Shown: in pieces, positions 7,934 through 11,725 of the stretch
Numbering within the stretch: position 1 is the stretch's first letter
Layout of the letters: each line of letters opens with the position of its first letter
Source of the DNA: a virus
Reading direction: 5' to 3' (one strand)
DNA length: 17,786 nt
UHGV virus genome: UHGV-0019208
Made by a program: the position numbers and the translations under genes
The notes under the pieces: model-generated
The model's database searches: none
Told to the model about the DNA's origin: nothing
What the model saw: the letters and a program-made list of their open reading frames with translations, nothing else

Positions 7934-10348
7934 TTAATACAGGTTTCGCCACTTATCATCTTCCTGCAAACGCTGGTTCCGATAGAAGATACGCAGGCCT
8001 GCTCCTGACGGAATACTGCCTCCGCGAAGGAGTAAATCGACCTCTTTCTCGCTGCCATCAAATCCTCTGGACTTCAGCTCATACACGAGCTGCAGTCGCT
8101 GATGGTCTGTAATTCGCTGTTTGTAGTCTTTACGCCGTTTCGGTTTCACCAGGCGTAACCTTGCTGCCAGTTCCCGGCGCTCTTTTTTGCTCATACTGTG
8201 CAGGTAATCGTGCAACTCCTTGTCATCCATGCTGGTAATGTCCGTTCTGGGGTCCCCATCAGCTGATTTATCTTTCTCCTGTTGGTTCAAATTTTCAGCA
8301 AGGGGACAGTTATTGCCACGAGTCCAAGGGGCGCAAGCGCCCTGGTCGGCTGCCGCCTCCTGAACGTCAACGGCCTTACGAACCATTTTCCACTTCACGG
8401 CATGAGTGCAGATCTTGCCCTCTGCAATAGGTGACCAGATGCCATAAATACGAATGCCGTGATCGCCATAGGCGGTCGGCTCTTCGTTGATTTCATAAGC
8501 AGTTCTGATGAGGTGATATTTACGGGGAACCAGTACGCCGCCCTGCTTCATGATGTAGGTGGCAAAACAACCAGCATCAGCAGCAGCCAGGATTGCATCA
8601 AGGCGCGGGTTATCCAGTACCGGCGCACCAGCTTTTTTGTCACCCTGTTGCCTTGCCGCCTGACCAGCCAGCAATCGCAGTTCACGGTAAGCCTGACGCC
8701 CCGGAATACCAAAGAAGCGGAATTGCTGAACACGATGCAGAGACGCCCAGGCATTCACGTATTCAGCGTTATCACGCAGGGATTTACCCGTTTCCTTGCT
8801 GATCTCGCCAGCCAGACCACGCCCGTCAATGTTCTTACTGATATATTTCGCGATGTAGCTTGTCGGCGTTCCTTTGCGCGGGTTAATCAACTCAGACTTA
8901 AAGCGTGGCCCCGTGTTATTCCCCAGCTCCTCGCGGTCTTCACGAATGGCAAACTTACGCAACAAAGCAGTAATGGCGCGGCGATCTTTTTTGCGCATAA
9001 AACACAACAGGTGCCAGTGAACTGTACCGTCATGATGCGGCTCAGCCACCCGCACGCCATACCAGCGCAATCCGGCTTTGTGCATCGCCTTACGAAATGC
9101 AGCAAACATGCCAACCAGATAATCACTGCTTTGTCTTACCGTCGCATTTGTCCAGGTCGGGTTGGGCCTGCCGTTATTTAGCGTGGAATGGAAACGTGAC
9201 GGACAGGTGATGGTGTAGAAAACGGCGCAGTCACCGCGCATCTCCGCGATAAGCTCCAGGCCTTTAACACAGGCCATCATCTCATTGCGGCGATGCGCAG
9301 GGTTGCTGCTGCTGGCGTTTACCACATCCTCCATGTCCAGCGTGTCGCCGTCTTCGTTCACCAGTTCATGAGAACGGAAAAACTCCAGCGACTTACGGCG
9401 CTGCTCACGTTTATGCATCACGGCTTCATAGCTGACATAGGGAGATGCTTTTTTGCTGACCAGACAGACAGCACGCAACTGCTCTTCCCGCCATTCGCAA
9501 CGCATCTTCCATAATTTCCGATACCACCAGTCGGCGCACAGCATACGCGCCAGCGAACCCGGAATGAGTTCATAGGGCACAGGTTTGCGGCGGTTTCTTT
9601 TCCGGCGGAGTTGCTCAAACGCAGGCGGTATGACATCCAGTCGCAGGGTTTCTGCTGCCACCTTTTCCCATGTCTTGCGGATTTCTTCCGGCTTAACGTC
9701 ATCGGTGGCATACAAATCGCCACAAGCGGCATCAAGGCACATACTCATATGCGCAGCTACCAGGGTGGACAGGCGTTTCACCTGATCCTGACTCATTTCA
9801 GGCAGGATCAGCAGGCCGTCCAGCCCTTCATGGCTTGCCATAAAGCGAAAAGATGTGGATAGCTGACTGTCGCGTACATGCTCCAGCCGTTCCAGACATG
9901 GCTTAATCGTCTCACGCAAATAGCGGGAATAAGCCTTTGGCCTGCCAAGGCTGCTGAAGTATTCAATACGTTGCATCAGCGGCTTGCTGATATGGGAGGG
10001 CTGGGCGCTGACGTCTGCCAGAATGACCATGTCCGGGTTAAAACGCTGCTGCTCATGCGCCAGCTTTGCCCGACTAATGAGCTTATCCTGCTCCATTTCG
10101 CGCTGGACAGGATCACGGGATTCATTAAAGAAATAACGCTCCCAGACCTGATCACTCAGCGCCTCACGGCGCAGCTGTTCCTGCTCGTTATCGGCAGCGT
10201 ACAGAGTGATCAGGTTTGAAAGCGTAGAAACCGGCGCAACTTCCGCCGGGTCCAGATAAGGGTTAATGGCCTTTTTCGGGCTGTTCCATGAGAACGATGC
10301 GGCAGCTTCGTTAAAGCCGCAGCAGTTGTTCATATCGGCATGACTCAT
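7934..10348 (-). CDS. A: Replication initiation endonuclease (rolling-circle), P2 gpA family
   Basis: 804 aa, with an HUH-type motif ([10 protein letters not shown]) and the tyrosine pair ([11 protein letters not shown]). Start ATG overlaps the stop of the upstream Dam gene (ATGA). Confidence 0.9.
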
Positions 10349-11202
10349 GCACGTACTCCGTACACGGCAGAACTATCCACGCCACGCGAATAATCAAATC
10401 CCACCCAGCAGCGCGGCCCGGAAACAGCAATGATTTCTGTTGCTGATTTACCCTCGCCAGCTGCCACACCGATGCTGCGTTTTGCCTTGATGTAGTGGTG
10501 AGTAAAATTGCGATACAGCGAACGGATCAGGGATGTGTCACTGTTAGAAACAATGACCGGATGTCCTTCTGATGACCGATGTTCAAGAACAGATGCCAGG
10601 TGATACTGGTCATCTTCAGTGAAGCCGTCAGTGTGATAGCCGGAAAACGTACCGTCATACGGCGGATCGCAATACACCACATCCCCCGCTTTCAACATCG
10701 CCAGCGTTTCATCAAAGCTGGCGCAGATAAACGTTGCTCGCTGGGCTTTTTCTGCAAATGCGCGAATTTCTTTTTCAGGGAAATACGGATTTTTATAATT
10801 ACCGTAGGGAATGTTGAAATGCCCGCTCTTGTTATAGCGACATAAACCACGGTAACCGTGACGATTTAGATACAGGAAATATACCGCTTTCATGAAATCA
10901 GTAATTTCAGTTGAGTAATTAAACTCCTGCCTTATGTTGTAATAAGCCACCTCCCTGTTTGCGATCTCAAATAAAACTCTGGCGCGAGATATAAACGATT
11001 CACAATCAGCAGCAACCTTTTTATAGAGGTTGATTAAATCAGGATTAATATCCGCAACAAGATAGCTGGGGTAATCCGTCTCCATCATCACAGCACAGGA
11101 ACCCGCGAAAGGTTCAACCAGTCGCGGGCCAGCAGGAAGATGTTTTTTCAGTTCGGACATAATGGCAGTTTTATTACCTGCCCATTTCAGGATGGTGCTC
11201 AT
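10345..11202 (-). CDS. dam: DNA adenine methyltransferase (Dam family)
   Basis: From ATG (complement of 11202..11200) with GGAGG RBS: [11 protein letters not shown]...EPFAGSCAV...YCDPPY. Motif I and the DPPY motif IV are present. The track ORF had a 24-codon extension starting at an alternative codon. Confidence 0.9.
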
Positions 11203-11501
11203 ACAGCACCTCCTGCAATAACATATCCCAAAGCTTCTAATGGAGTTAATGGGCGAATTGATAGCATCACCCATTGTTCTGAAACTGCCATGACGTCATT
11301 AACCGGAAGCACATGAGAGATAACAGCGGCCCATTCCCTACCCGTAAATACGCCATGCTTCCATTCGCAAAGAGAAAGAACATCACCAACTTTATAGCCA
11401 CGATCGTCTTTACGAAGTTCAGCCGTCTTTTGACCTGCAACCACAGCGTTGAAATACTTAGGTGCAATTTTTAATTGATGGATACGCACTGCCCTTGTCA
11501 T
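11199..11501 (-). CDS. DUF3850/ASCH-like (PUA-fold) small protein
   Basis: From ATG (complement of 11501..11499): [50 protein letters not shown]... matches the DUF3850 pattern as I recall it. Stop overlaps the Dam start (ATGA). Confidence 0.55.
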
Positions 11502-11725
11502 ACAGCACCTCCGTTGTAATGTTTGCCTTTCAGCTCTACGATTTCCTGGCAGGTAATGCAAAGCTGCACTCCCGGAATGGCGCGGCGTCGTGCTGGCGGA
11601 ATTGGCGCTTCACATTCAATACAAAGCACGCGAGACACGCCCGGTGTTTTGGCACGGGCAGCACGAATATGGCGCTGGCGTTCTTCTTCAACGCGCTGCT
11701 GTACGAGATCCATTGCATCAGCCAT
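11498..11725 (-). CDS. DksA/TraR-family C4 zinc-finger protein
   Basis: 75 aa with [25 protein letters not shown] (C-x2-C...C-x2-C). AGGAGA RBS. Stop overlaps the next start. Confidence 0.75.

Follow-up and report, generated by a model that had tools for sequence, protein, structure and literature searches.

We analysed the whole 17,786-nucleotide (nt) stretch of the virus genome UHGV-0019208 (referred to here as the window), and found that a small gene of the DUF3850 family, lying in a chain of overlapping genes that leads to the replication gene A, is bounded by two identical copies of a 15-mer and is present in or missing from close relatives as a unit of exactly 299 bp. This cassette assorts largely independently of its flanks, and the 15-mer is one version of a joint motif observed throughout the P2-like family. 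We consider it probable that the interval between the TraR-like gene and gene A (gpA) is a translationally coupled array of cassettes, whose linker allows genes to be gained and lost without leaving a scar.

The element that carries it is a P2/186-family (Peduoviridae) prophage of Escherichia coli, as indicated by its cI-type repressor, apl/cox, cII (CP76), integrase, terminase, portal and DinI-like neighbours. The nearest named phages to this region of the window were Cartapus (Elveevirus), the Klebsiella 4LV2017-type phages and Salmonella RE2010, and the prophages of E. coli SCU-172 and SA53-3 matched it at 99.9-100% identity.

The duplicated joint and the 299-bp cassette

The 15-mer TCATACAGCACCTCC (plus strand) occurred exactly twice in the window, at 11199-11213 and 11498-11512, with 299 nt from start to start, and no third copy was found in the window even when up to 2 mismatches were allowed. 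An identical 15-mer at the starts of the Dam and DUF3850-like genes had already been pointed out in the first-pass annotation, correctly but with coordinates one base too low. Read on the coding strand as GGAGGTGCTGTATGA, it comprises the Shine-Dalgarno (SD) sequence GGAGGTG, placed 4 nt ahead of the next ATG, the codons GGA GGT GCT GTA (Gly-Gly-Ala-Val) and a TGA stop that overlaps that ATG. The TraR and DUF3850 proteins, which are unrelated, both end in GGAV because the 15-mer encodes both tails. The similarity between the surroundings of the two copies broke off sharply at 15 nt on both sides.

11498..11512, minus strand: junction copy J1, GGAGGTGCTGTATGA; the last four TraR codons (GGAV) and TGA, overlapping the DUF3850 ATG
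11199..11213, minus strand: junction copy J2, identical, GGAGGTGCTGTATGA; the last four DUF3850 codons (GGAV) and TGA, overlapping the Dam ATG
11199..11497, minus strand: the segment of 299 bp that is present or absent as a whole, comprising the DUF3850 body and one 15-mer (equivalently described as 11214-11512)

Both copies lie in a five-gene chain on the minus strand, which runs from DUF2732 through the TraR/DksA zinc-finger gene, the DUF3850/ASCH-like gene and dam to gpA, with overlaps of 1 or 4 bases, and which is the far end of the early operon. The overlaps by ATGA or TAATG described in the first-pass annotation were found at all four junctions, each being read directly from the sequence.

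11725..11958, minus strand: DUF2732 gene, homologue of P2 orf80 and 186 orf79 (Pfam PF10809, 3.7e-29)
11725, minus strand: DUF2732/TraR junction, TAATG with a 1-nt overlap, the TAA stop sharing a base with the TraR ATG
11498..11725, minus strand: TraR/DksA-type C4 zinc-finger gene, homologue of P2 orf82, 75 amino acids (aa), C-terminus YNGGAV (PF01258 zf-dskA_traR, 3.7e-11)
11498-11501, minus strand: TraR/DUF3850 junction, ATGA
11199..11501, minus strand: DUF3850/ASCH-like gene (PUA-like fold), the optional cassette, 100 aa, C-terminus IAGGAV (PF12961, 1.1e-23, and ASCH, 2.2e-5)
11199-11202, minus strand: DUF3850/Dam junction, ATGA
10345..11202, minus strand: Dam-type (D12 class) N6-adenine DNA methyltransferase, 285 aa (MethyltransfD12, PF02086, 1e-76)
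10345-10348, minus strand: Dam/gpA junction, ATGA, the Dam TGA overlapping the gpA ATG
7934..10348, minus strand: replication initiator gpA, 804 aa, constant downstream boundary of the variable interval (Phage_GPA, 1.1e-127)

When the sequence was shuffled with its dinucleotides preserved, 0.01 copies of the 15-mer were expected and none of the 200 shuffles contained two or more. The two-copy structure was moreover found in 76 independent complete E. coli genomes, 44 IMG/VR contigs and one GTDB Escherichia genome. A chance match or an assembly artefact, in favour of which nothing speaks beyond the shortness of the repeat, is refuted by these independent assemblies and has a negligible probability. 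The 44 IMG/VR loci, which were found by a search anchored inside the DUF3850 gene, all had the order TraR-DUF3850-Dam, and J1 was identical to J2 in 42 of them (43 of 45 counting the window). The two exceptions were L138, with one single-nucleotide polymorphism (SNP) in J2, and L046 (IMGVR_UViG_643348545_000015), where both copies were intact. In L046 the DUF3850 gene was broken by a 777-bp IS1-like insertion (with an InsA-like open reading frame (ORF) and a duplication of about 9 bp), so that the 15-mers were 1076 nt apart; as indicated by this disrupted copy, DUF3850 is dispensable in the lysogen that carries it.

In a search of 50,697 phage records, 43 of the 58 records obtained (relatives 94-97.6% identical) aligned in two pieces, covering 1502 bp as against 1801 bp in the window. 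Exactly 299 bp, namely DUF3850 and one 15-mer, were missing from all 43 of these close relatives, in which TraR was joined to Dam by a single 15-mer; Cartapus, for instance, had one copy, with the TraR 3' flank on its left and the Dam 5' flank on its right. Among complete E. coli genomes the region was present in 1,232 and the cassette in 76, which means that about 94% of such prophages do not have it; the 76 all showed at least 80% coverage, and the best matches were 98-100% identical. Among the GTDB species representatives the E. coli-type cassette was found in only one other Escherichia genome, with the arrangement unchanged, and there was no sign in this set of a cassette moved into a different context. 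Since the joint is duplicated, on both sides of the gene, either state is a complete in-frame chain (TraR-J-Dam or TraR-J-DUF3850-J-Dam), in which translational coupling would still be possible.

These comparisons support the proposal of the first-pass annotation that modules were inserted by means of a conserved linker, because the relatives are without exactly DUF3850 and one copy of the 15-mer. Rather than being absent from relatives and flanking modules inherited as one block, the 15-mer was present in them and the modules were inherited separately: the cassette varied without Dam, and Dam itself was absent from P2, PSP3 and MHG39.

A short direct repeat at the edges of a segment that is present or absent could also be left by a mobile element, the 15-mer being the target-site duplication or an att-like site of a transposase or of a site-specific recombinase, as in integrons. 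No transposase or recombinase was found in or adjoining the 299 bp, however, the 284-bp body encoding only DUF3850, and no terminal inverted repeats were found at the ends of the cassette. The only integrases were that of the prophage itself, about 3 kb away, and that of a neighbouring element. Furthermore, the repeat functions both as coding sequence and as SD, and single copies of it already occur at other joints and in phages that have no cassette. The missing inverted repeats and recombinase effectively refute the integron and transposon readings, and an origin of this kind is very improbable.

The joint motif and gene arrangements in P2-like phages

Loci were collected by means of the conserved 5'-end of dam, so that the joint was not pre-selected and could be viewed without bias. 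Every type of gene preceding dam in these loci ended in GGNGGNGCNNNATGA, that is, in a GGA tail followed by V, I, A, K or Q, and these genes included TraR, several DUF3850 lineages, an RNase_T-type exonuclease and small unknown ORFs. The consensus GGNGGTGCNNNATGA applied to the joints that lie ahead of Dam, DUF3850, the exonuclease, a 62-aa ORF and P2 orf81. Its core GGAGGTGC was also found at joints in which TraR takes no part, namely orf80/orf81 of P2 (L214, 2185-2201), GGAGGTGCTTTGATG, and the DUF2732/exonuclease joint of ESSI2_ev040 (L003, 1875-1889), GGAGGTGCAGCATGG. In L178 an unrelated 62-aa ORF lay between TraR and Dam, and its two joints matched at 14 of 15 positions.

A comparison covered every ATGA joint in the collected loci whose two ORFs were at least 60 aa long. 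Those of the variable interval were 0-4 mismatches away from the 11-mer GGAGGTGCTGT, while the other ATGA joints centred on 7-9, which is the random expectation; a few exact matches to the 11-mer in unrelated contigs had come through the 15-mer search and were not counted as controls. The joints located after Dam belonged to a different type, for example GGAGTACGTGCATGA.

The interval from TraR to gpA contained 19 ORF chains, corresponding to at least 12 real gene arrangements, the rest being IS1 or frameshift artefacts. The commonest one was TraR-Dam-gpA (80 of 159 loci), and most joints in these arrangements were 4-base overlaps. The optional genes were Dam, DUF3850, the exonuclease, DUF5405 (P2 orf83), a DndB-like gene, a PAPS-reductase-domain gene, a C5-cytosine methylase and several unknown ORFs; the accessory genes of the interval are mostly devoted to DNA modification or nucleic-acid metabolism. 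A second insertion point was observed between Dam and gpA (L106, L017, L195 and L111), where a PAPS-reductase-domain protein, a C5-cytosine methylase or an unknown protein of about 276 aa was encoded, with ATGA or GTGA overlaps. Dam was split or truncated by frameshifts or premature stops in L056, L138 and L166, and it is thus not always kept intact in these prophages.

In the stretch from the TraR-like gene to gene A the accessory genes are strung head to tail, nearly all of them with a stop/start overlap of 4 bases, and in our reading the 15-mer is the joint of this array. It provides a strong SD for the next ATG and ends the upstream frame at the overlapping TGA, the Gly-Gly-Ala-x tail on unrelated upstream proteins being a by-product. 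The overlaps, together with an SD located inside the upstream gene, are compatible with translational coupling, and the genes may be expressed in this way or by re-initiation at the joint. In a consensus scan of 11199-11512 the coding strand of the cassette and its immediate surroundings showed no promoter-like site, and the only terminator-like match nearby was a weak 5-bp stem in TraR.

A hairpin was also predicted at the start of Dam, which would sequester its SD.

11188..11215, minus strand: predicted hairpin sequestering the Dam SD, CAGGAGGUGCU-GUAUG-AGCACCAUCCUG, with J2 paired with Dam codons 2-5

Its 86-nt context had a predicted energy of -30 kcal/mol (z = -2.87), none of 200 shuffles being as stable, and the hairpin recurred in most variants of the Dam start. 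No equivalent structure formed at the TraR/DUF3850 copy; no compensatory changes were found in the Dam-start hairpin, and its pairing was no better than that of column shuffles. Such a structure would make the translation of Dam depend on ribosomes coming from upstream, and we keep it here as a hypothesis only.

Assortment, age and possible exchange of the cassette

Several analyses indicated that the cassette and its flanks assort largely independently. Some loci without the cassette encoded a Dam protein 100% identical to that of the window, and a 100% identical cassette was found beside a Dam with only 92% identity. In a tree built from the flanks (86 distinct haplotypes) presence and absence required at least 9 state changes, compared with a mean of 26 for permuted labels, which implies some phylogenetic signal. 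All four gametes of cassette state were observed with common SNPs at -37 and at +20/+23, the maximum r2 being 0.33, and the divergence of the flanks between cassette classes (0.04) was barely above the diversity within classes (0.03-0.037). In 40 cassette-bearing loci the diversity at third codon positions was 0.078 for TraR, 0.025 for DUF3850 and 0.074 for Dam; the cassette was thus about 3 times less diverse than its flanks, and its first 180 nt were almost invariant. This pattern fits both a cassette that spread into diverged backgrounds, or was exchanged between them, and a rare allele whose flanks recombine with a cassette-less majority.

Yersinia phage MLG42 had the same TraR-DUF3850-Dam order, with a cassette 74.6% identical in nucleotides to that of the window and flanks 71-83% identical. 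The cassette being about as diverged as the flanks, the arrangement predates the split of these lineages. The two joints of MLG42, GGAGGTGCAGTATGA and GGGGGAGCTATATGA, have drifted to 11/15 identity with each other, and its DUF3850 ends in GGAI; the differences were synonymous or conservative, as expected of an old duplicated joint.

If the interval is a cassette array, DUF3850 could be lost when the two 15-bp direct repeats recombine or when replication slips from one to the other; it could be gained from a relative that carries the cassette, through recombination in the flanking genes or at the joint. The 15-mer itself would in this case be a candidate crossover site. Alternatively, DUF3850 may have been inserted only once, long ago, by illegitimate recombination; the two 15-mers would then be good ribosome-binding stop/start joints kept alike by selection, and the pattern would come from ordinary homologous recombination in TraR and Dam, the 15-mer not being a recombination substrate. 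The similar divergence of cassette and flanks in MLG42 speaks for such an old insertion, as do the composition of the motif, which is largely an SD and ATGA and is common to joints that are not duplicated, and the lower diversity of the cassette, which is expected of a rare allele in a recombining population because it coalesces faster. Against it, J1 and J2 were identical at all 15 positions, including synonymous ones, while the equivalent joints in other lineages differed at 3-4; the second, unrelated 62-aa cassette of L178 lies at the same place between nearly matching joints; and linkage was already broken within 20-37 nt on both sides. Direct repeats of 15 bp that are 299 bp apart are, in addition, a known substrate for RecA-independent deletion. 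On this evidence a single old insertion is possible, but we think it rather unlikely.

Other results weigh against a cassette array with scarless exchange. No cassette-less prophage differed by the indel alone: the nearest one detected in 5,426 E. coli genomes, with a query from which the cassette had been deleted in silico, was 98.8% identical over 1.6 kb, and the nearest pair of cassette-less and cassette-bearing loci in IMG/VR differed at 13 of 900 sites. No recent event was therefore caught, and the breakpoint cannot be placed within the 15-mer. J1 and J2 were no more alike within one phage than between phages (permutation P = 0.18), so that there was no general sign of exchange between joints; this result and the missing indel pair also favour an old insertion. 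No tandem double cassette was present in the 44 loci. Function alone (SD, spacing and ATGA) can account for much of the motif, and the same boundaries, the same weak linkage and a lower diversity of the cassette would follow from a single ancient insertion with subsequent ordinary homologous recombination in TraR and Dam. The coupling, the specificity of Dam and the function of DUF3850 are at this point predictions from sequence and models. Concerted evolution of the two joints was rejected by the permutation test given above, and a version of this test that also included joints downstream of Dam, and was not clean for that reason, gave P = 0.03.

A broader and distinctly speculative extension, which we consider improbable as a whole, would be an integrase-free 'translational cassette array' in P2-like phages, in which the linker GGNGGTGCNNNATGA serves both as expression signal and as recombination site. 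Single genes for DNA modification or counter-defence, such as those for Dam, the C5-methylase and the DndB-like, PAPS-reductase-like, exonuclease and ASCH-like proteins, would be excised and re-inserted in frame without a scar, perhaps through small circular or linear intermediates like those of the PeSLs of T4-type phages. The array would then be a case in which the old linker hypothesis could be tested directly.

Related systems, encoded proteins and neighbouring genes

Morons, as described by Hendrix and Juhala, are extra, dispensable phage genes found between other genes in some members of a group, typically with a promoter and a terminator of their own. The DUF3850 cassette resembles them as an extra gene of some phages that is missing from close relatives, but it was rejected as a moron because it carries neither of these signals itself, shares 4 nt with each neighbour and depends on the operon transcript and on the upstream stop/start overlap. 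In the 'linker' model of Susskind and Botstein, short conserved sequences at gene boundaries, such as those of lambdoid phages, have reportedly been proposed to guide the exchange of modules, and the model is said to have little direct support. It deals with alternative alleles of whole modules swapped in lambdoid phages, whereas here single accessory genes are added to or dropped from one operon of P2-like phages.

The closest documented parallel is offered by the PeSL 'mobile regulatory cassettes' of T4-type phages, which consist of a promoter and a terminator, lie at the boundaries of ORFs, bring about shuffling and give rise to mini-circles (Arbiol et al. 2010, PMC2839356; also PMC4122927). 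In both systems a short conserved expression signal is repeated at the edges of optional small genes in a variable region, the ends of insertions, deletions and replacements between close relatives fall at the repeats (here, a 299-bp indel bounded by two 15-mers), and each moving gene keeps a working expression signal. However, a PeSL consists of an early promoter and a terminator stem-loop placed between genes, and the joint of the P2-like phages is a 15-nt SD and stop/start sequence inside the upstream coding sequence. Recombination and mini-circles have been shown experimentally for PeSLs, whereas the P2-type joint is known here from sequence alone.

The orf82-orf83-A region of P2 and the dam genes of RE2010- and Cartapus-type phages occupy the same operon position and share the core genes (DUF2732, TraR-like and gpA), with ATGA overlaps in P2 as well. 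P2 differs in having DUF5405 (orf83) in place of Dam and a TraR that ends in RRTA instead of GGAV, and the window adds DUF3850 between TraR and Dam. All five genes of the chain belong to annotated families, Dam is well known in P2-like phages, and the gene content is therefore ordinary. A literature search turned up no account of the TraR-gpA interval or its joint, which is no proof of novelty. P2-like phages have in this interval a second variable region, separate from the gpA-gpQ defence hotspot, and its architecture may be new. We regard it as a modest illustration, in a neat variant, of the known theme that phages acquire and discard genes and leave the adjacent ones undisturbed. If the joint were shown to be a crossover site, it would explain in a simple and testable way how temperate phages gain and lose genes without a scar, and it would put the linker model of modular evolution on an experimental footing. 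The joint could also serve as a design rule for the insertion of promoterless genes into P2-type genomes, and the region suggests a partnership between DUF3850/ASCH-like proteins and the DNA-modification genes of phages.

The DUF3850 protein matched the ASCH-like structure of Enterococcus faecalis (PDB 3iuw) in sequence at 7e-10. An AlphaFold model (38 homologues, pLDDT 91) also had 3iuw as its top Foldseek match (E = 4e-9, TM 0.93), and it matched YqfB, the Zymomonas ASCH protein and the ASCH domain of TRIP4 more weakly and YTH domains marginally. The predicted fold is thus that of the ASCH/PUA-like proteins (3iuw, the E. coli ac4C amidohydrolase YqfB, ZmASCH and TRIP4), but identity to the characterised enzymes of this fold was only 12-14%, the likeness being one of fold. 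The GGAV tail was modelled as coil and was missing from distant homologues, and it is therefore part of the joint and not of the DUF3850 fold. A role of DUF3850 in nucleic-acid binding, possibly of modified bases, is plausible from these similarities, and it might act as a small module that reads such bases alongside the phage Dam. DUF3850 domains of prophages fused to ParB-CTPase folds have been described, alongside ParB-methyltransferase fusions (preprint, bioRxiv 10.1101/2025.10.10.680097). In locus L159 a DndB-like (DGQHR) gene of 360 aa lay directly before the DUF3850 gene and Dam, an order that echoes the ParB-fold-DUF3850 fusions of that preprint. In a PADLOC scan of the small genes only Dam was matched, by orphan or type II methylase models, and DUF3850 gave no significant match.

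The PF02086 match of Dam covered residues 7-244 against profile positions 1-253 of 253. The protein was close to the E. coli Dam structures 2g1p and 4gol (2e-73) and to the PADLOC orphan methyltransferase model (3e-111), and its translation contained the catalytic DPPY (YCDPPYDG), EPFAGS and a FxGxG-type S-adenosylmethionine-binding motif. The similarity to E. coli Dam suggests that it methylates GATC. This site was neither enriched nor avoided in the window (60 sites versus 63.7 +/- 6.8 expected), so that no bias pointed to Dam-linked biology. The connection of Dam with replication or anti-restriction that the first-pass annotation suggested is thus a conjecture only.

The TraR-like protein matched PHROG 54, 'DksA-like zinc-finger protein' (1.7e-30), and contained four cysteines in a CxxC...CxxC arrangement (CIECEAP...LCITC). 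TraR of the F plasmid binds in the secondary channel of RNA polymerase and alters transcription. The ATG of the DUF2732 gene at 11958 agreed with the 234-nt coding sequence annotated in Cartapus, while the ORF listing extended the frame to a TTG at 11964.

Between gpA/DinI-like and portal, the window encoded a GmrSD-family protein (GmrSD_N and GmrSD_C; PADLOC HEC-06, 7e-75) at 3800-5581 on the minus strand and a PD-T4-7 homologue (PADLOC, 2.8e-144) at 6115-7173 on the plus strand. These two genes occupy the gpA-gpQ locus, which is a published anti-phage defence hotspot of P2 (PMC9122126). Finally, a second tyrosine integrase of 457 aa with an Arm-DNA-binding domain was located at 16191-17564 (plus strand), just past the P2-type integrase at 14327-15343 (plus strand), suggesting that another integrative element lies in tandem at the same attachment region.

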